From a virus, in the IMG/VR virus record IMGVR_UViG_3300002036_000002, positions 1-34,788 of that record: a DNA stretch of 34,788 nt, one strand, 5' to 3'. The translations under genes and the position numbers were made by a program. Positions within the stretch are counted from its first letter, which is position 1. Each line of letters begins with the position of its first letter. The notes under the pieces are model-generated. The model made no database searches and was not told the origin of the DNA. It saw nothing but the letters and a program-made list of their open reading frames with translations. This document shows positions 12,036-21,328 of the stretch, piece after piece.

Positions 12036-12371
12036 ATGATGCAATGGTTGAACGAAAAATTAATATTGTTCCTAATCGCAGTTTTGGGGGCGAGCTCCCT
12101 TGCAGGGTTGGCCGCACTTCTGAGAAGCGGGAAGGAGTTAACATCGAGAGACATTTTCAGCTCTCTTCTAAACAGCGGAATTATGGGAGCCGGAGTGTTT
12201 GCCGTATGGTGGAGCTATGGAGGAGAGAGCAACCCTATACTAGCGGCAGGAGTATGCACTCTTGCCGGCCTAGGAGGAACTGCTACGGTAGAATTTGTAG
12301 CCGCTAGCGCAAAAAGGGTTATAGACAGAATCTTTGGAGGAGAAAATAATGGCAACCCACACAAAAAGTAA
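12036..12371 (+). CDS. Holin-like membrane protein with 3 predicted TM segments.
   Basis: Hydrophobic stretches LILFLIAVLGASSLAGLAALL, GIMGAGVFAVWW and ILAAGVCTLAGLGGTATV, with a charged C-terminus. Adjacent to the endolysin. Confidence 0.65.
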   Translation: MMQWLNEKLILFLIAVLGASSLAGLAALLRSGKELTSRDIFSSLLNSGIMGAGVFAVWWSYGGESNPILAAGVCTLAGLGGTATVEFVAASAKRVIDRIFGGENNGNPHKK

Positions 12372-12816
12372 TCTATTGCTAATAGTATCTTTTATTCTTC
12401 TTGGAGGAATAATGACTGTAGCTAATAGAATGACAGATACAAATCTCGCTTATTCTCGCGCAATGATGATTTTAGAAGAATCTGGAACATCATTTATTGA
12501 GAGTGACAAGAATGGTAAAATAATAGCCTGGCTAGGAGCCTCAAAGGAAATATTTGGTTATACAAAAGATCAGGCATCTGGGATTTCTATACACGAGCTT
12601 ATAAAGCCAGTTGATAGAAGCCGACATATATCTGCTTACAATATGAGGATGAATGAACCGGCAGAAAGTGGTCATGAATTTAAAGGGCAGCCAGCGATAG
12701 ATTCAAATGGGGTTACTATATTTATAGACGGAATTGTAATGGCTCATAAGGGAGGGGCTTTAGGGATTTTTCAAAAATCGAAAAAGAAAAATAGCAAAAC
12801 ATTCATAAAGCCATGA
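12349..12816 (+). CDS. Membrane-anchored PAS-like domain protein.
   Basis: N-terminal TM segment NLLLIVSFILLGGIMTV. This is followed by DKNGKIIAWLGASKEIFGYTKDQASGISIHELIKP...DSNGVTIFIDGIVMA, which fits the PAS fold pattern. GGAGGAG 6 nt upstream of ATG 12349. Confidence 0.5.
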   Translation: MATHTKSNLLLIVSFILLGGIMTVANRMTDTNLAYSRAMMILEESGTSFIESDKNGKIIAWLGASKEIFGYTKDQASGISIHELIKPVDRSRHISAYNMRMNEPAESGHEFKGQPAIDSNGVTIFIDGIVMAHKGGALGIFQKSKKKNSKTFIKP

Positions 12817-13016
12817 AAATTACTCAGAAATTTCCTATTGCATTTAAACGAAAAGGGGTTACAAGAATACATCTTTCAGAGCGAGTTTATTTAAAAATCC
12901 AGATTATCAACGGAGATCGGGTAGTCTCTATTAATAAACCAGGGACGGGATATACAGCTAGTCAGCGTTTTAAAAGGGGTGATACAGTGGTAAATTTACA
13001 GTCGGCATTAATTTAA
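12813..13016 (+). CDS. Hypothetical protein.
   Basis: ATGA overlap with the upstream gene. No motif recognised. Confidence 0.4.
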   Translation: MKITQKFPIAFKRKGVTRIHLSERVYLKIQIINGDRVVSINKPGTGYTASQRFKRGDTVVNLQSALI

Positions 13017-13018
13017 CG

Positions 13019-13189
13019 ATGAGCCAACCAATAACATTGAGTAAACATATTATTCGTATCCGAAAATATTTGGAATGCGGTGAAGGGGATACCCTAAATG
13101 ATTGGCATACTGTCAAGAAAATCAATCATGCATTGGGGATTGAAGATTTGCCATTGGAAGATTCAAAGCCTTCCAATAAGAAAAAGTGA
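13019..13189 (+). CDS. Hypothetical small protein of 56 aa, below the track cutoff.
   Basis: ATG 13019 to TGA 13187-13189, which overlaps GTG 13186 of the next ORF. It fills an otherwise empty gap. Confidence 0.35.
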   Translation: MSQPITLSKHIIRIRKYLECGEGDTLNDWHTVKKINHALGIEDLPLEDSKPSNKKK

Positions 13190-13383
13190 CTAGAAAAAAT
13201 TTAGATCACGATAATCTAAAAAAGTTTGTTGTCGGGGAAACTTTCTTTGCCATTAGGCGTTGCCATACTGACCATATAGTGAGGACATTCACCCGCACTG
13301 ATATTATGGCAGACTGGTTGAAGACTCAAGCAGAATATCACAAGGACTCCATAGAGGTTGTCCATTGTGGAGTTCTTCTTTAG
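13186..13383 (+). CDS. Hypothetical protein.
   Basis: GTG-initiated ORF from the track. It is the last ORF before the AT-rich intergenic region. Confidence 0.35.
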   Translation: MTRKNLDHDNLKKFVVGETFFAIRRCHTDHIVRTFTRTDIMADWLKTQAEYHKDSIEVVHCGVLL

Positions 13384-13406
13384 ATTCGATATAGTTCATA
13401 TTTTGG

Positions 13407-13436
13407 AATGATGCCTATTCAGGTGTCATTTTTGTG
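13407..13436 (+). terminator. Putative intrinsic terminator closing the late/lysis transcription unit.
   Basis: aatgatgcc / ggtgtcatt gives a 9-bp stem (two G-U pairs) with loop tattca, followed by tttttgtg. Confidence 0.4.
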
Positions 13437-13516
13437 TATTCTTCTGAACATCAGGAATACCTAATTTTCGACTTGGGATTAATAGAGTCGATCGATGCTC
13501 TTTACCTCTATAATTG

Positions 13517-13560
13517 CCTTATTTTAATAAGGTTATGCATATTTAATATGTATTAAATAT
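13517..13560. promoter_or_regulatory. Pair of AT-rich palindromes; candidate operators.
   Basis: ccttatt-tt-aataagg at 13517-13532. atatttaata-tg-tattaaatat at 13539-13560, with perfect 10-bp arms. Both lie 40-90 bp upstream of the putative early promoter. Confidence 0.45.
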
Positions 13561-13602
13561 CAAATATATAGACAAAAAATTGATATTTTTTATGTAAATG
13601 TG

Positions 13603-13631
13603 TTGACTATTATTTATTTGCAGGGTATTGT
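13603..13631 (+). promoter_or_regulatory. Sigma70-like early promoter.
   Basis: TTGACT (13603-13608), a 17-nt spacer, then TATTGT (13626-13631). It sits 25 nt upstream of ATG 13656. The context GTTGACTATT is shared with the site at 22688. Confidence 0.5.
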
Positions 13632-13655
13632 TTTTTAACGAGACAACATAAAATT

Positions 13656-13904
13656 ATGAGCGAAAAAAAATTGAAAGAGCACATCCACAAATATTCAATA
13701 CAGATTTTTGTAACTAAGGAATTGAGGGATTCTATAAAAGAATTAGCTGATAAAAATAGGAGGAGCATGGGTAACCAGCTCCTTTATATGGCTATTGGAG
13801 AAAAAGATTTTATTGGGAAATGATCAATATCCTACTAATTGGCCTAGGTCTGATGATTGGTGTAATCATATCATCCATTCAACAATGGAGGAGGAGCGAG
13901 ATTG
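13656..13904 (+). CDS. Ribbon-helix-helix (Arc/CopG/MetJ-type) DNA-binding protein.
   Basis: My own translation is MSEKKLKEHIHKYSIQIFVTKELRDSIKELADKNRRSMGNQLLYMAIGEK.... This gives a beta strand (YSIQIFV) followed by two helices, as in Arc/CopG. It is an 82-aa ORF absent from the supplied track. The tail after residue ~50 overlaps another plausible ORF. Confidence 0.65.
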
Positions 13905-13956
13905 AGCGCATCAAAATAGAACGAAGCAGGCTGAGAGAAATTTCAACCCCACGTAA
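13819..13956 (+). CDS. Small single-pass membrane protein of 45 aa.
   Basis: MINILLIGLGLMIGVIISSIQQWRRSEIERIKIETKQAERNFNPT: a hydrophobic helix followed by a charged tail. It overlaps the 3' end of the RHH ORF in another frame. Confidence 0.4.
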
Positions 13957-13958
13957 AA

Positions 13959-14240
13959 ATGTGCGTTGAATTTATATTCACAATCGGTGGGTTTGATTTT
14001 GTATGCAAGCATCATCAAAAAATAAAAGGGCATATGTCTATTAATAGTTACAGCCTTTCAGAGGCTCCTGAGCCAGCTAGGGTTGAAATTTGTAAATGTT
14101 ACCATTCATCTAATGGATGGGGACAAGACATTCTTGAAGGCATACTAGAACTAGGAGTAGATATAGATGATTTATCGGAAATGGCCCTTGATTTTTTTAA
14201 TGAAACATTGGGAGATTCTAACGAGACATTCATAAAATAA
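13959..14240 (+). CDS. Hypothetical acidic protein; the start may be ATG 14034.
   Basis: ORF from the track. The internal in-frame ATG at 14034 gives MSINSYSLSE..., 68 aa. Confidence 0.4.
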   Translation: MCVEFIFTIGGFDFVCKHHQKIKGHMSINSYSLSEAPEPARVEICKCYHSSNGWGQDILEGILELGVDIDDLSEMALDFFNETLGDSNETFIK

Positions 14241-14243
14241 ATC

Positions 14244-14576
14244 ATGAACACAGGGAAAAAATCTACTGGAAGTATGGTTGTCGACCAACGTCTTGTTGCC
14301 ACTCAATTTCAACTCTCGGAAAATGTAGCCGCACACTACCCAGCAGGCGTCCACATTGACCGTATGACCAGTCCCATTTACGACGGAATCAAATGGGCGG
14401 TCAGGCGCAGAGGATACGTCTTATCGACTAACGGAGAATGGGAATATGAACCAATGCCATCGAGTAGAGACGATGATTTCTATGCACGTTACCGCTTTGG
14501 TTCACTAGATGCGGCATTGGAGGCGCTCGACCTTTACATGAGCAAAATAAAAAACAATGAAGAAACATACATTTAG
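14244..14576 (+). CDS. Hypothetical protein.
   Basis: ORF from the track. No motif recognised. Confidence 0.45.
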   Translation: MNTGKKSTGSMVVDQRLVATQFQLSENVAAHYPAGVHIDRMTSPIYDGIKWAVRRRGYVLSTNGEWEYEPMPSSRDDDFYARYRFGSLDAALEALDLYMSKIKNNEETYI

Positions 14577-14691
14577 TAAAGAGGCAATGAGGGCTTTTGC
14601 TGACAGTGCAAGGAATTGGCAAGCCTGCGACAGGAGGAAAGTATTCTATGAATGTAACGAGTTCTGGCAAGATCCCTCTGGATTCACATGA
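14557..14691 (+). CDS. Cassette peptide A1, 44 aa.
   Basis: MKKHTFSKEAMRAFADSARNWQACDRRKVFYECNEFWQDPSGFT. It has paralogues at 14931 and 15305, and conservation across three copies argues for a real gene. Confidence 0.6.
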   Translation: MKKHTFSKEAMRAFADSARNWQACDRRKVFYECNEFWQDPSGFT

Positions 14692-14739
14692 CCTACAAGG
14701 TCTGCCTGTCAGGTTGACGGGCTCGAAACAGGTGATAGT
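14692..14739 (+). promoter_or_regulatory. Conserved 48-nt structured element, copy 1.
   Basis: cctacaaggtctgcctgtcaggttgacgggctcgaaacaggtgatagt, nearly identical in all three cassettes. Possible hairpins are GCCTGTC-AGGTT-GACGGGC, or CCTGT paired with ACAGG. Confidence 0.6.
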
Positions 14740-14934
14740 CCCATAGATCCTTCAGGTCAGGAGGGCCTAGCACTAGAAGAGTTTGATCGTTATTTGTATA
14801 GGAAATATTGTTCGAACCGTGAATATAAGCACCTTACATATACAAAATTAATAGACCGTGGAGAGGGAGAACTTATAGCTGACCTGATGGAAGAAGGCAT
14901 AAAGAATGGGGATGAAATTACTATACCAATATGA
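14692..14934 (+). CDS. Cassette protein B1 reading frame with no canonical start codon. It is in frame with A1 through TGA 14689-14691.
   Basis: 81 codons are open after the A1 stop. It aligns with B2 and B3 (LALEEFDRYLY...GEGELIADLMEEGIKNGDEITIPI). Where B2 and B3 have ATG, this copy has ccc ata. The only nearby in-frame candidate is ATA 14743, 6 nt after AGGTGAT. Confidence 0.4.
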   Translation, partial: PTRSACQVDGLETGDSPIDPSGQEGLALEEFDRYLYRKYCSNREYKHLTYTKLIDRGEGELIADLMEEGIKNGDEITIPI

Positions 14935-15065
14935 AAACACACACATTTAGTAAAGAAGCAATGAGGGCTTTTTCTGACAGTGCAAGGAATTGGCATGACT
15001 GTGAAATGAGGAAAACAAGATATCGATGCGGCACTTACTGGCAAGATGAATTTGATTTCACATGA
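14931..15065 (+). CDS. Cassette peptide A2, 44 aa.
   Basis: MKTHTFSKEAMRAFSDSARNWHDCEMRKTRYRCGTYWQDEFDFT. ATGA overlap with the B1 stop. Confidence 0.6.
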   Translation: MKTHTFSKEAMRAFSDSARNWHDCEMRKTRYRCGTYWQDEFDFT

Positions 15066-15113
15066 CCAACAAGGTCTGCCTGTCAGGTTGACGGGCTCGA
15101 AACAGGTCATGGT
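15066..15113 (+). promoter_or_regulatory. Conserved 48-nt structured element, copy 2.
   Basis: ccaacaaggtctgcctgtcaggttgacgggctcgaaacaggtcatggt. Confidence 0.6.
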
Positions 15114-15308
15114 ATGAGGGATGGTTCAGTTCAGGAAGACCTAGCACTAAAAGAGTTTGATGATTATTTTTATAGCAAATATAAGCACCGTAAATATTCC
15201 CTTATATATAGCTATACAGGTTTAATAGACTGTGGAGAGGGAGAATTTATAGCTGACCTAATGGAAGAAGGCATACGGGACGGGGATAAAATTACTATAG
15301 AATTATGA
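15114..15308 (+). CDS. Cassette protein B2, 64 aa, acidic.
   Basis: ORF from the track. Paralogous to B1 and to the B3 N-terminus. Confidence 0.6.
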   Translation: MRDGSVQEDLALKEFDDYFYSKYKHRKYSLIYSYTGLIDCGEGEFIADLMEEGIRDGDKITIEL

Positions 15309-15439
15309 AAACACACACCTTTAGCAAAGAGGCAATGAAGGCTTTTGCTGACAGTGCCAGAGGATGGCAGGACTGTGAAATGAGGAAAACAATATATATA
15401 TGTAAGTATTACCGGCAAGACATATTTGATTTCACATGA
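15305..15439 (+). CDS. Cassette peptide A3, 44 aa.
   Basis: MKTHTFSKEAMKAFADSARGWQDCEMRKTIYICKYYRQDIFDFT. ATGA overlap with the B2 stop. Confidence 0.6.
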   Translation: MKTHTFSKEAMKAFADSARGWQDCEMRKTIYICKYYRQDIFDFT

Positions 15440-15487
15440 CCTACAAGGTCTGCTTGTCAGGTTGACGGGCTCGAAACAAGTGATGGT
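15440..15487 (+). promoter_or_regulatory. Conserved 48-nt structured element, copy 3.
   Basis: cctacaaggtctgcttgtcaggttgacgggctcgaaacaagtgatggt. It carries the paired C>T and G>A changes. Confidence 0.6.
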
Positions 15488-15964
15488 ATGAAGATTTATT
15501 CAGTTGATGAACGCAATGCATTAAAAGGGTTTAATAATTATTTACGTGATAAAGGTTCACTTCATGCACTTATTAACTATAACTATAACTATATAATAGA
15601 CGAGGGAAATGGAGAATTTGTAGCTGACCTGATGGAAGAAGGTATAAGGGATGGGGATGAAATTACTATACCAATATCAAAGGTTGTTCGAAATTTTAAA
15701 ACTATGAACGCATACATACTAACGAGCGAATACGAGGAATATGAACAAAAGGGAGAATACTTCATTGCGTGGTTCCATAAGAAGCCTAGCCTCGATGAGC
15801 TTCAGCAAGTAATGATAAGTAAAGACGAAAAAGATTCTCGTGAGCTTTGCTGTCACATTTTAGATGGTGGTGGTCGCAGAAAGTTGTCGGATTATCAATG
15901 GTATCACCTGCGAGAAGTTCCTTCTGAGAACTTCATAGCTCAGCCGCTTCCAACTGAACTATGA
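15488..15964 (+). CDS. Cassette protein B3, 158 aa: a B domain fused to an extra C-terminal domain.
   Basis: The N-terminal 60 aa align with B1 and B2. Where B1 has ccaataTGA, this copy has ccaataTCA, and the frame continues for about 95 more residues. Confidence 0.6.
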   Translation: MKIYSVDERNALKGFNNYLRDKGSLHALINYNYNYIIDEGNGEFVADLMEEGIRDGDEITIPISKVVRNFKTMNAYILTSEYEEYEQKGEYFIAWFHKKPSLDELQQVMISKDEKDSRELCCHILDGGGRRKLSDYQWYHLREVPSENFIAQPLPTEL

Positions 15965-16167
15965 AATCAAAATCAAACACCGAAGAAGCCAAAGGCAATG
16001 CGTGCGTTGCTGGGGATATTCACATTGTGGATAATCCCGAGGCCGATGGTTCCGACTTGGAGCCAGAGAAAATCCCTTTCGCACTTCTGATAGAATTCGA
16101 TTCAGCCGACGAAGTAAGGAAGGCGATGAGCGATGGATCTTGCACATTTACAGTATTCGGGGGCTAA
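15961..16167 (+). CDS. Hypothetical acidic protein in the GC-richer island.
   Basis: ORF from the track. ATGA overlap with the B3 stop. Confidence 0.45.
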   Translation: MKSKSNTEEAKGNACVAGDIHIVDNPEADGSDLEPEKIPFALLIEFDSADEVRKAMSDGSCTFTVFGG

Positions 16168-16189
16168 CGCCTAAGATAGCCCATCGCCG
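16166..16189 (+). repeat. 24-nt direct repeat, copy 1.
   Basis: aacgcctaagatagcccatcgccg is identical to 16484..16507. It overlaps the stop codon of the preceding ORF. Confidence 0.9.
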
Positions 16190-16210
16190 AACAATCAACC
16201 GACTAAGAAC

Positions 16211-16492
16211 ATGCCAGAAACCATTGAAGAACCAAAAAACTGCGGGTTGGACAGCACCCGCTTGTTCTCCGATTCCGAGCGATTGGAATGGGTGATTGCT
16301 ACCAAAGCCAGCGTGACCCAAGGGGAGCGCATGACGACACGAAAATGGCCACCATCGAAAGATAACCTCGAAACGGTCTATCAATGCGAGTGGTGGAGCA
16401 AAAACGGCGATCTTGTGATGCAGTCCGTGGACGCTCGACACCTGACAATGCGGGATGCAATCGACGCCGCAATGATTTCGGAGAACGCCTAA
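16211..16492 (+). CDS. Hypothetical phage protein.
   Basis: ORF from the track. The motifs SERLEWV and MRDAIDAAM resemble common small phage proteins of unknown function. Confidence 0.5.
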   Translation: MPETIEEPKNCGLDSTRLFSDSERLEWVIATKASVTQGERMTTRKWPPSKDNLETVYQCEWWSKNGDLVMQSVDARHLTMRDAIDAAMISENA

Positions 16493-16507
16493 GATAGCCC
16501 ATCGCCG
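16484..16507 (+). repeat. 24-nt direct repeat, copy 2.
   Basis: Identical to 16166..16189. Here it is followed by gggctat, forming the hairpin atagccc-atcgcc-gggctat. Confidence 0.9.
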
Positions 16508-16607
16508 GGCTATAGACTCACACCCTCAGGATGAAACCTACTAAATCAGATGCAGTGTCGATCCCGCAGAGGGTCGGTGATTGGTTCTCATCGCCTTGTT
16601 AGCCGAT

Positions 16608-16781: not shown

Positions 16782-17207
16782 ATGATCACACAAACACAAT
16801 ACCAAAATATCGTATATGCCTCAGAGGCATTAATTGAGAACCACAAGCTAGGTCTTAAGTGTAGAGAAAAATACAGAGATAATGATGAACGTTGTTGTCT
16901 CTGTGTTATGGCAGACCTAGCAGAAGATGTCTTAGAAAGACCTAGAGGTTCTCTAGAAATACCAGAAGAAGTAGGACTTCCAATGTATGAAGAAATGCAC
17001 AAATTTTACGGGATGGATGGGCTCACTTTCAGGTCTGGTTTTAACCCTAAAATTAAAATATTGGGTAAGTATGGAACAATGGCAGACCATAATGATAGTA
17101 ATATTTTCGATTTCTCTGAAGAAGTTATAGGCTATATATCAGAAAAAACCCATGAAGAAATAGGCTTAGCACTACTAGACTGGGCGAACGAACAAGAAAT
17201 AGAATAA
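16782..17207 (+). CDS. Hypothetical protein.
   Basis: ORF from the track. No motif recognised. Confidence 0.45.
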   Translation: MITQTQYQNIVYASEALIENHKLGLKCREKYRDNDERCCLCVMADLAEDVLERPRGSLEIPEEVGLPMYEEMHKFYGMDGLTFRSGFNPKIKILGKYGTMADHNDSNIFDFSEEVIGYISEKTHEEIGLALLDWANEQEIE

Positions 17208-20154: not shown

Positions 20155-20364
20155 ATGGAATCATCAATAGAAGACCAACTGAAATGTGCAGCTACAGAGC
20201 TTGCTAATCGTAGGAACATCTACCCTCTATGGGTATTATCGGGTAAAATGACCGAAGAATCTGCGGAAAAAGGGATTTATAAAATGGGAGAAATAGTCTT
20301 AACCCTTTCTAAAGCTAGGAGAAATGGGGAGATCAAGGCTCCAAAAGAAATTTTCCATGACTGA
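20155..20364 (+). CDS. Conserved small phage protein of unknown function.
   Basis: ELANRRNIYPLWVLSGKMTEESAEKGIYKMGEIVLTL resembles a recurrent motif (R-x-x-YP-x-x-V ... M ... TL) in small proteins of phage replication modules. Confidence 0.45.
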   Translation: MESSIEDQLKCAATELANRRNIYPLWVLSGKMTEESAEKGIYKMGEIVLTLSKARRNGEIKAPKEIFHD

Positions 20365-21328
20365 TAAGATGGCAGATTTACCCTACATGCAACTTTATCC
20401 GTCTGACTGGCTTTCAGATTGCCAGGTTCTTTCAATCGCTTCTCGTGGAGCGTGGCAGACAATCATATGCAAGGCTTGGATTTCTTCAAATCGAGGCGTT
20501 GTCAGTCTTAAAATTGCTGCCTTCGCCCGTCTTTTCGGATCGACCATAGAGGAGGCTCTTGAGGCAATTTTAGAGATCGAGGAAATGGGGATAGCGGACA
20601 TTTCTAGGCTAGAAGATGGGAGAATCGAAATAGTCTGCCGAAGGATTGTCCGTGATATTTCTCGCATGGAAGAGATGGCGAAAAATCGATCGGAGAGGGC
20701 AAAAACTGCCTCAAGAGCTCGATGGGATGCCAAGAAGGGCCTGCAAAAACCAGTCAATGGAACACCCAAAGAATCTTCCGATAATGCTCCAAGCATGCAC
20801 CAAGAATGCGGCAAGCATGACTCAAGCATGACTCAAGCATGCTCCAAGGATTTGCCAAGCAACGGTCAAGCAATCCTTGACGATGCAATACTAGAAGCTA
20901 GAAGTCAGAAGCTAGAAGCTAGAAGTCAGAATCTAAAAACAAGTACCCCCAAAACCCCCAAATCAGAATCCGGGAAAAAATTCAAAAAACCGGAAATTCT
21001 CCAAGTTGCTATGAGGTTCTCATATCTTGGAGCAATCTCTAAAAGAATATCAACAGAACTTGCAGAGAAATTTGTGGCGCATTACGAAAGCAACGGATGG
21101 AAGGTCGGCAAAGTTCCCATGAAATCTTGGGAGTCAGCATGCGTAACCTGGAAATCGAACAACAAGGAATTATTCGAAAAAAAGGAAAAGAGGCCTTCGG
21201 AGCCCAACGGATGGAAGTCGATTGCAAATGACATTGAACCACAAAGGGACTGGTCAAAGGTCAGGTGGGCACACGTTCCTTTTGATCTTCAACACAAGAT
21301 TAAGATCAAACTAGAATCAAATGATTGA
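20357..21328 (+). CDS. DUF1376-family replication initiator / replisome organiser.
   Basis: LPYMQLYPSDWLSDCQVLSIASRGAWQTIICKAW matches the DUF1376 N-terminal signature (YM-x-x-Y-x-x-DW ... G-A-[YW]). It lies directly upstream of, and overlapping, dnaB, and contains the repeat array at 20789. Confidence 0.7.
   Translation: MTDKMADLPYMQLYPSDWLSDCQVLSIASRGAWQTIICKAWISSNRGVVSLKIAAFARLFGSTIEEALEAILEIEEMGIADISRLEDGRIEIVCRRIVRDISRMEEMAKNRSERAKTASRARWDAKKGLQKPVNGTPKESSDNAPSMHQECGKHDSSMTQACSKDLPSNGQAILDDAILEARSQKLEARSQNLKTSTPKTPKSESGKKFKKPEILQVAMRFSYLGAISKRISTELAEKFVAHYESNGWKVGKVPMKSWESACVTWKSNNKELFEKKEKRPSEPNGWKSIANDIEPQRDWSKVRWAHVPFDLQHKIKIKLESND
20789..20876. repeat. Eight phased 11-bp units containing CAAG(C/A/G)A; an iteron-like array and candidate ori.
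   Basis: The units are ccaagcatgca, ccaagaatgcg, gcaagcatgac, tcaagcatgac, tcaagcatgct, ccaaggatttg, ccaagcaacgg and tcaagcaatcc. They start at 20789, 20800, ... 20866. An 11-nt period is not a multiple of 3, so this is not a peptide repeat. Confidence 0.7.
20891..20932. repeat. 2 x 21-bp tandem repeat, internally 7-mers of CTAGAAG/TCAGAAG.
   Basis: ctagaagctagaagtcagaag followed by ctagaagctagaagtcagaat. It encodes LEARSQK LEARSQN. Confidence 0.85.

Follow-up and report, generated by a model that had tools for sequence, protein, structure and literature searches.

Three tandem podovirus genes with an in-frame UGA codon and a downstream hairpin: candidates for programmed recoding and possible selenoproteins

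Results

Three tandem units in the early region of a podovirus genome

The window analysed here comprises positions 1 to 34,788 of IMG/VR virus record IMGVR_UViG_3300002036_000002. This ~34.8 kb genome is that of a podovirus, with T7-like portal, capsid, tail-tubular and gp14-like genes, and it also encodes DnaB, a RecE-like exonuclease, VRR-NUC and an Amidase_2 lysin. No tRNA gene, integrase or RNA polymerase was detected in it. In its early or accessory part, where the initial annotation had placed it, lies a cassette of three tandem units on the + strand, each containing an open reading frame (ORF) that is interrupted by one in-frame TGA and continues beyond it. We report that each 374-nucleotide (nt) unit is probably one gene, giving three paralogues rather than three copies of a two-gene cassette, and that its UGA may be read as a sense codon, possibly selenocysteine (Sec).

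TRF returned a single array at 14557-15681 (period 374, 3.0 copies, 78% matches, score 1194), in line with the tandem triplication described by the initial annotation, with units starting at 14557, 14931 and 15305. The units were as follows:

14557-14934, + strand: unit 1, 125 codons plus a terminal TGA; in-frame TGA at codon 45
14931-15308, + strand: unit 2, 125 codons; in-frame TGA at codon 45; the start overlaps the stop of unit 1 (ATGA)
15305-15964, + strand: unit 3, 219 codons; unit architecture kept to residue 124, then a 95-residue extension

The period had been called exact; this does not hold in unit 3, which has a one-codon deletion. ATGA stop/start overlaps join the units at 14931-14934 and 15305-15308, and another stands at 15961-15964. 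The sequences previously quoted for the 44-residue ORFs before the TGA (here A) recur as quoted in all three units. The contrast drawn between a basic A and an acidic part after the TGA (B) also held, with isoelectric points of 7.8-8.8 (mildly basic) and 4.3-4.5, respectively.

The third copy has lost its stop, as had been noticed: TCA stands at 15677-15679 where the other copies have TGA, and 95 residues are added. This extension matched phrog_6933 (function unannotated; E = 2.5e-8). Because the match begins at profile position 1, which falls on M134 (ATG 15704-15706), the extension probably derives from a gene of its own further downstream, joined in frame to unit 3 when TGA changed to TCA.

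The triplication is not an assembly artefact, as the window and JGI contig 3300002038 each cover all three units. The contig (34,852 bp) is 99.9% identical to the window and differs only outside the cassette, by a 12-nt indel (16824-16835) and two single-nucleotide polymorphisms in the terminase region. The indel is an in-frame polymorphism inside gene 16782-17207. Positions 1-116 of the contig are absent from the window, and because the ends differ, the two are independent assemblies. Two Logan assemblies from other runs were 100% identical to the window, both beginning at 15078. Since this start lies within the repeat, they confirm the sequence only and are uninformative on copy number. Position 15078 is the exact start of the unit 2 hairpin described below, as expected from a repeat-induced graph break.

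Each unit is a gene-like frame split by one TGA

We observed that A and B share one frame in all three units and are split by one TGA. This frame (frame 0) contains one internal stop per unit, compared with 10-18 in the other + frames (10 and 14 in unit 1). Over the 66 codons 3' of the hairpin there were no stops in frame 0 versus 7-12 in the other + frames, and downstream of the in-frame TGA the frame stays open for 80-174 codons. We scored codon usage as log-odds trained on 13 long phage genes, a scale on which real genes calibrate at +0.39 +/- 0.16. Frame 0 scored +0.11 to +0.67 and was positive in all four segments of all three units, with off-frame values in the cassette of -0.19 to -1.9. 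The 16-codon linker between the TGA and the supposed start of B was positive as well. A coding signal is present on both sides of the in-frame UGA, as in bacterial selenoprotein genes.

Unit 1 contains no ATG, GTG or TTG from its TGA (14689) until a TTG at 14794, which would yield 46 residues only. It is therefore unable to make a separate B, and an independent B start is not found in every unit. The frame of unit 1 is still open and its C-terminus is conserved (P ~0.09-0.26 of being open if neutral). Each unit had been said to encode an acidic protein of ~64 residues; this is true of unit 2 only, and unit 1 has no separate B start. In unit 2, the internal ATG at 15114 (codon 62) is called as a 64-residue gene in public data. 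Only two of the six half-ORFs are present in public protein collections, and gene callers split or miss these genes. The earlier suggestion of a two-component module, a basic peptide with an acidic partner, fits poorly with a continuous gene-like frame that carries a TGA and a hairpin resembling a selenocysteine insertion sequence (SECIS).

Were there two genes per unit, translation of A would stop at the TGA and B would start from its own ATG 48 nt further on in units 2 and 3. In unit 1, B would be truncated (TTG 14794) or dead, and the hairpin would serve regulation or processing between the two cistrons. Public calls do give B2 (64 residues) and B3 (158 residues) from ATG, AGGUGAU-like sequences precede the B ATGs, and three other pairs of same-frame neighbours on this strand are split by one stop. 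However, the Shine-Dalgarno (SD)-like duplexes before the B ATGs are weak (-2.1 to -3.8 kcal/mol), and because the phage shows no SD use (see below), the AGGUGAU sequences carry little weight. Stops that split long open frames on the + strand number six: the three TGA-C of the cassette and three TAA-A. The latter separate ordinary adjacent genes, and the next ATG follows after 1-6 codons, unlike a TGA-C with a 16-codon gap. Two genes would also require several coincidences, namely a shared frame, an open and gene-like 16-codon linker and codons 46-58 that vary only synonymously, and unit 1 lacks a start yet is open. We consider a two-gene unit, although the conservative reading, unlikely.

The in-frame UGA has a leaky context and precedes a conserved hairpin

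The elements around codon 45 were as follows, with the near-invariant block taken from a column-by-column alignment:

14689-14691, + strand: in-frame TGA (codon 45) of unit 1, followed by C
15063-15065, + strand: in-frame TGA (codon 45) of unit 2, followed by C
15437-15439, + strand: in-frame TGA (codon 45) of unit 3, followed by C
14683-14739 (~57 nt), + strand: near-invariant block of unit 1, encoding F-T-(UGA)-PTRSACQVDGLET
14704-14722, + strand: SECIS-like hairpin of unit 1, GCCUGUCA-GGU-UGACGGGC, 8-bp stem, -11.0 kcal/mol
15078-15096, + strand: SECIS-like hairpin of unit 2, sequence identical to unit 1, -11.0 kcal/mol
15452-15470, + strand: SECIS-like hairpin of unit 3, one C-to-U change turning a C-G pair into U-G, -8.2 kcal/mol
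14690-14702, 15064-15076 and 15438-15450, + strand: small hairpin GACCU-ACA-AGGUC of units 1, 2 and 3, -5.3, -4.9 and -5.3 kcal/mol, containing the GA of the UGA

A C after UGA makes a classic leaky, weak-termination context (PMC7026636). We found C at position +4 in 3/3 in-frame TGAs compared to 0/13 gene-terminal TGAs. A leaky UGA-C with an in-frame ORF downstream is the arrangement of programmed readthrough.

In-frame TGAs would also be expected in a genome with an alternative code (UGA as Trp or Gly, codes 4 or 25). Apart from these codons, TGA serves as a stop in the usual way; it ends 13 of the 35 ORFs on the + strand, often in ATGA overlaps, and no long gene contains it in frame. Such use of TGA excludes a genome-wide change of code, an explanation that is effectively refuted. 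A sequencing or assembly error is hard to reconcile with a TGA that three diverged copies share and that assemblies of three samples recovered independently. Taken together, a changed code or an error has next to no chance of explaining the cassette.

The best-conserved DNA of every unit is the ~57-nt block around and past the TGA, whose equivalents begin at 15057 in unit 2 and 15431 in unit 3. Across the three copies, codons 46-58 show two differences only, both synonymous and in the third position. The SECIS-like hairpin adopts the same fold in all three copies, begins 12 nt past the UGA and has its loop 20 nt past it; the C-to-U change in unit 3 is synonymous (GCC to GCU). Folded alone, the hairpin reached -11.0 kcal/mol (z = -4.08), a stability matched by none of 200 shuffles. 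When the same 20-residue peptide was recoded synonymously, only 0.32% of 5000 versions gave an equally stable SECIS-type hairpin, so the hairpin has been under selection at the RNA level and does not simply follow from the peptide.

No T-run follows the SECIS-like hairpin, so it is not a terminator, which counts against its being an intercistronic element between two genes. An 8-bp hairpin is also too short for an RNase III site. We looked for an intrinsic terminator or an internal promoter on the + strand within the cassette and found neither.

The small hairpin bears on ribosomal bypassing of the kind seen in T4 gene 60. Peptidyl-tRNA(Thr) would leave the ACA at codon 44, and the ribosome would slide and land on a downstream ACA (+9 or +42 nt); UPTRSACQVDGLE would be missing from the product in part or in full, with residues PTRSACQVDGLE absent. 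The cassette resembles gene 60 in its short upstream ORF (44 codons versus 46) and in a stop placed within a compact 5-bp stem-loop directly after the last sense codon (-5.3 kcal/mol, containing the GA of UGA, like the gene 60 take-off stem-loop). An ACA stands before every UGA, with matching in-frame ACA codons downstream at +9 and +42 nt. This match has little statistical weight: at 65% of positions, the same codon is expected again within 60 nt by chance. In contrast to gene 60, the putative gap reads as coding sequence: it is open in frame, its codon usage is gene-like and its only variation is synonymous. Pfam and PHROG annotation of the genes around the cassette showed no homing endonuclease, and the mechanism is extremely rare. 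Bypassing is very improbable.

The hairpin fits the bacterial SECIS model

The bacterial SECIS (bSECIS) model specifies an apical loop of 3-9 nt, a stem of 4-16 bp and a G in the first two loop positions (PMC13188914, Fig. 2A), together with a UGA-to-loop distance of 16-37 nt and a minimum free energy of <= -7.5 kcal/mol (PMC13188914). The cassette hairpin satisfies all four bSECIS criteria, with a GGU loop, 8 bp, 20 nt and -11.0, -11.0 and -8.2 kcal/mol in units 1 to 3. Applied to every TGA triplet of the window, these criteria were passed by 18 of 1216 (1.5%). Six of the 18 represent the cassette hairpin, seen from the three in-frame TGAs and from three nearby out-of-frame TGAs. No gene-terminal TGA passed (0/13).

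We compared the hairpin with the SECIS of Escherichia coli fdhF, which 5419 of 5426 E. coli genomes carry at 100% identity. The cassette apex GUCA-GGU-UGAC (CAGGUUG) parallels the fdhF apex GCA-GGUC-UGC (CAGGUCUG), and the UGA-to-loop distances are 20 nt and 18 nt, respectively. As in fdhF-type bacterial selenoprotein genes, a UGA-C is accompanied by a stem-loop just downstream within the coding region and by a nearby Cys. The cassette stem is perfect, unlike that of fdhF with its bulged U. The cassette also differs from bacterial selenoprotein genes in being phage-encoded, free of homologues and present as three tandem, diverging paralogues.

These features bear on ordinary programmed readthrough, in which a near-cognate tRNA (Trp, Cys or Arg) would read the leaky UGA-45 at low frequency. 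The ratio of 44-residue peptide to 125-residue fusion would be fixed, with the hairpin tuning efficiency and no selenium involved. The evidence for a single ORF applies equally to readthrough, as does UGA-C at 3/3 in-frame versus 0/13 terminal TGAs. Readthrough is an established viral strategy and needs no special host machinery, which would suit a host with little SD use. Known stimulators typically lie ~8 nt past the stop and the E. coli SECIS spacing is 11 nt; the cassette hairpin, 12 nt past the stop, lies beyond the former and agrees with the latter. Readthrough also leaves the GGU loop and the CAGGU(C)UG likeness to fdhF unexplained, and an invariant Cys six residues downstream with two more upstream suggests that the chemistry of residue 45 matters. 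We regard readthrough without selenium as possible, although on the unlikely side.

Conserved ends and a diversifying middle

We estimated divergence among the paralogues from synonymous (dS) and nonsynonymous (dN) substitution rates. Pairwise dS of ~0.3-0.9 agrees with the description of the array as an old, maintained amplification, and the in-frame TGA has been kept in all three paralogues despite this divergence. The UGA block has barely diverged (dS 0.09-0.19). Purifying selection acts on the first 44 codons (dN/dS 0.28-0.63), which also makes the A peptide plausible alone, as two genes per unit would have it. Invariant in the three copies are C24, C33, the UGA at position 45 and C51.

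Codons 62-99 showed dN/dS of 1.4-1.8 without third-position bias, and the last ~25 codons are conserved again. The copies have diversified, as had been proposed, in a middle region flanked by conserved ends. The open frame and the codon usage mark this region as protein-coding; judged from these, it is a diversifying part of the protein and not non-coding DNA. The dN/dS of >= 1 past the hairpin does not speak for translation of the linker, a point in favour of two genes per unit. Conservation of the ends and of the UGA/hairpin block, combined with a diversified middle, suggests three specificities on one chemistry.

The protein family has no detectable relatives

The initial annotation had recognised neither protein family, and both halves are indeed orphans in Pfam, PHROGs, NCBIfam and the PDB, where sequence and profile searches gave nothing significant for either. 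The best sub-significant matches were to DUF1967/Obg-C (E = 0.05-0.1 over 15 residues) and CopM (E = 0.15), and we rejected them. In collections of 5.8 billion and 1.84 billion proteins, ORFs of the window were the only real matches. A word-indexed protein search returned the window's own ORF alone. Extra matches from an exhaustive HMMER search were long repeat proteins with stretches of ~5 bits each, which we discarded as spurious.

Viral, metagenome and genome collections, which may not contain this phage, yielded no match to the exact RNA motif or to a degenerate (U/C)PTRxACQVDG pattern. The DNA pattern TGH-PTRxACQVDG had no match in them either, and the same collections did not return the phage's own JGI contig. 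Relatives found through a neighbouring 385-residue protein and TerL were <=56% identical and had unrelated early regions. Neither the cassette nor its motif was present in 40 related loci fetched through conserved neighbours (tblastn, nhmmer), and the early regions of three further loci found via TerL were unrelated, judged from gene tables. The A/B pair, which the initial annotation had proposed to look for in other phage genomes, was absent from these 40 related loci.

FDFT-U-PTRSAC resembles the BCP peroxiredoxin motif TPG-C-TVQA-C. We rejected a BCP/PrxQ relationship: hhalign gave a probability of 0.14% with the motif not aligned, and Pfam and PDB searches gave no AhpC-TSA match. An AlphaFold2 model of the 80 residues after the TGA, built from a 3-sequence alignment, had a pLDDT of 51 and was uninformative.

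Discussion

A proposed model of UGA recoding

We favour a single recoded ORF because it explains together the shared frame, the gene-like linker and the missing start of unit 1, and also because of the TGA-C context and RNA-level selection on a hairpin at SECIS distance. All recoding mechanisms taken together are likely to include the correct explanation. The reading that we put forward within them is tentative: three paralogous proteins of ~125 residues made by programmed UGA recoding, most likely with selenocysteine. What favours selenocysteine is the fit to SECIS, with a GGU apex like that of fdhF and a spacing of 12 nt, together with invariant cysteines nearby. The open, gene-like frame, the conserved UGA within it, the RNA-level selection on the hairpin and the SECIS fit are observed, whereas recoding itself, selenocysteine as the inserted residue and a redox or metal-binding role are inferred.

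According to this model, translation would begin at the A ATG, and at codon 45 the ribosome would encounter UGA in its weak-termination context (UGA-C). The conserved hairpin 12 nt downstream would direct redefinition of the UGA as a sense codon, giving a product of ~125 residues (219 in unit 3). The host SelB-GTP-Sec-tRNA(Sec) complex would bind the hairpin and insert selenocysteine, placing Sec45 within an invariant F-T-U-P-T-R-S-A-C motif. Residue 45 might then form a redox or metal-binding centre with the invariant C24, C33 and C51. Because ribosomes that fail to recode would release the 44-residue N-terminal peptide, both products are probably made.

These features point at most to a small early protein that combines a Cys3-Sec (or Cys3-X) centre with a middle under diversification and an acidic C-terminus that is conserved, and that comes in three specificities. 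The part in anti-defence or host takeover to which the initial annotation pointed is purely conjectural. The phage itself would be a lytic-type podovirus with its own selenoprotein family, three tandem, rapidly diversifying early proteins of ~125 residues with Sec45 inserted by host SelB and a phage-borne SECIS, a picture that we offer with some reserve.

Evidence that weighs against selenocysteine

Several points weigh against selenocysteine at position 45. Phrase searches of the literature found no report of a phage selenoprotein, which makes the prior low. Searches of the whole window, and of the cassette with lax filters, gave no match to SECIS or other Rfam families. The three paralogous UGA regions are near-identical, with one pair-preserving stem change (C-G to U-G), so their three signals amount to little more than one observation. 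UGA-containing homologues were not found in other organisms, leaving the three paralogues of this genome. Cys homologues aligned to the UGA were likewise absent among the 5.8 billion and 1.84 billion proteins; because there are no homologues at all, the Cys/Sec-pair comparison fails by absence and not by contradiction. We found no tRNA(Sec) or sel genes in the phage, which has no tRNA genes of any kind and no sel-like Pfam or PHROG matches, and the host may not be Sec-competent. Protein-level purifying selection is not demonstrable past the hairpin because of the dN/dS there, and gene callers accept the ATG 48 nt past the TGA in units 2 and 3.

Translation initiation adds to these objections. 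Only 7 of 38 phage starts (18%) had an SD duplex at or below -4.5 kcal/mol, compared with 27% at random positions, so that a low-SD host clade is hinted at. The phage starts lie in A/T-rich leaders, often directly after TAA. These data suggest a host with SD-independent initiation. Absence of SD enrichment is typical of hosts such as Bacteroidota or Cyanobacteria, and a 2006 survey did not detect the Sec trait in Bacteroidetes or Cyanobacteria (PMC1794560). As for relatives, cultured phages (<=37% identity) infect Proteobacteria, the nearest named TerL is that of a Terrimicrobium (Verrucomicrobiota) prophage (49%), and prophage relatives of the 385-residue neighbour come from many phyla, with 8 of 33 loci in Desulfobacterota.

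Comparison with other viral recoding

The only viral selenoproteins named in a 2021 recoding review are two poxvirus glutathione peroxidase (GPx) genes (PMC8310308). These genes, GPx1-like in molluscum contagiosum virus and GPx4-like in fowlpox virus, would be the only other viral UGA-Sec genes. The fowlpox SECIS also lies within the coding region (PMC8310308). The poxvirus genes are captured cellular enzymes with a eukaryotic-type SECIS, whereas the cassette is phage-borne, its element is of bacterial type and its family is an orphan. A selenoproteome review does not mention phages (PMC13188914). Each unit would be, like Q-beta A1, a phage ORF extended past a leaky UGA, with a short major and a longer minor product (PMC7026636). 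Unlike in Q-beta A1, the hairpin is the most conserved feature of the cassette and is SECIS-like. Readthrough in Q-beta is not known to require a conserved hairpin past the stop.

Recoding of UGA through a SECIS is not new in itself; a gene with a bacterial-type SECIS in a phage, belonging to an orphan, triplicated and diversifying family, would be new. If selenocysteine is inserted, the cassette would encode the first phage selenoprotein among the literature reports that we found and a selenoprotein family without Cys-containing relatives. Phages would then tap the host Sec machinery, and phage gene expression, perhaps including host-takeover or anti-defence activity, would depend on host selenium metabolism. 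Because selenoprotein surveys rely on Cys/Sec pairs and cellular genomes, orphan phage genes lie beyond them. Were residue 45 some other amino acid, the cassette would still add a new case of recoding in bacteria or phages, with a hairpin-dependent UGA signal conserved across three diverging paralogues. The element is compact (60 nt) and directly testable in a reporter.

Other features of the genome

The cassette had been placed just downstream of an early promoter. We could not substantiate this, as 12600-16600 contains 11 sigma-70-like matches, compared with 11.2 from shuffled sequence. A promoter-like TTGACT-17-TATTGT (13603-13631) stands at the edge of an AT-rich, largely non-coding region (12.8-13.65 kb). 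After it comes a 55-residue ORF (13656-13823) that, by eye, may encode a ribbon-helix-helix repressor-like protein. The region 13603-13823 is likely the start of the early operon that contains the cassette.

At the end of the cassette, an inverted repeat CUUCAUAGCUCAG...CUGAACUAUGAA (15933-15964) spans the unit 3 stop and the overlapping ATG of the next gene, whose start it could occlude (-13.3 kcal/mol for 15915-15985). Further on, an exact 24-nt direct repeat, AACGCCTAAGATAGCCCATCGCCG, occurs at 16166-16189 and 16484-16507, overlapping the stops of two consecutive small genes (15961-16167 and 16211-16492) in locally GC-rich sequence (47%). GGGCTA/TAGCCC-type stems are possible around AACGCCTAAGATAGCCCATCGCCG, which may be a repeated regulatory or processing site.

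A 155-residue ORF near the lysis genes (12349-12816) gave a sub-threshold PAS match (PF00989, E = 2e-4, 21.6 bits versus a cut-off of 22.6), which is unusual for a small podovirus. Just upstream of DnaB, ORF 20324-21328 (334 residues, weak DUF1376 match) contains at 20784-20935 two adjacent short tandem arrays, an 11/22-nt array (ATGCACCAAGC, ~6 copies) and a 7/21-nt array (CTAGAAG, ~5 copies). These arrays look like replication-origin iterons embedded in an initiator gene.

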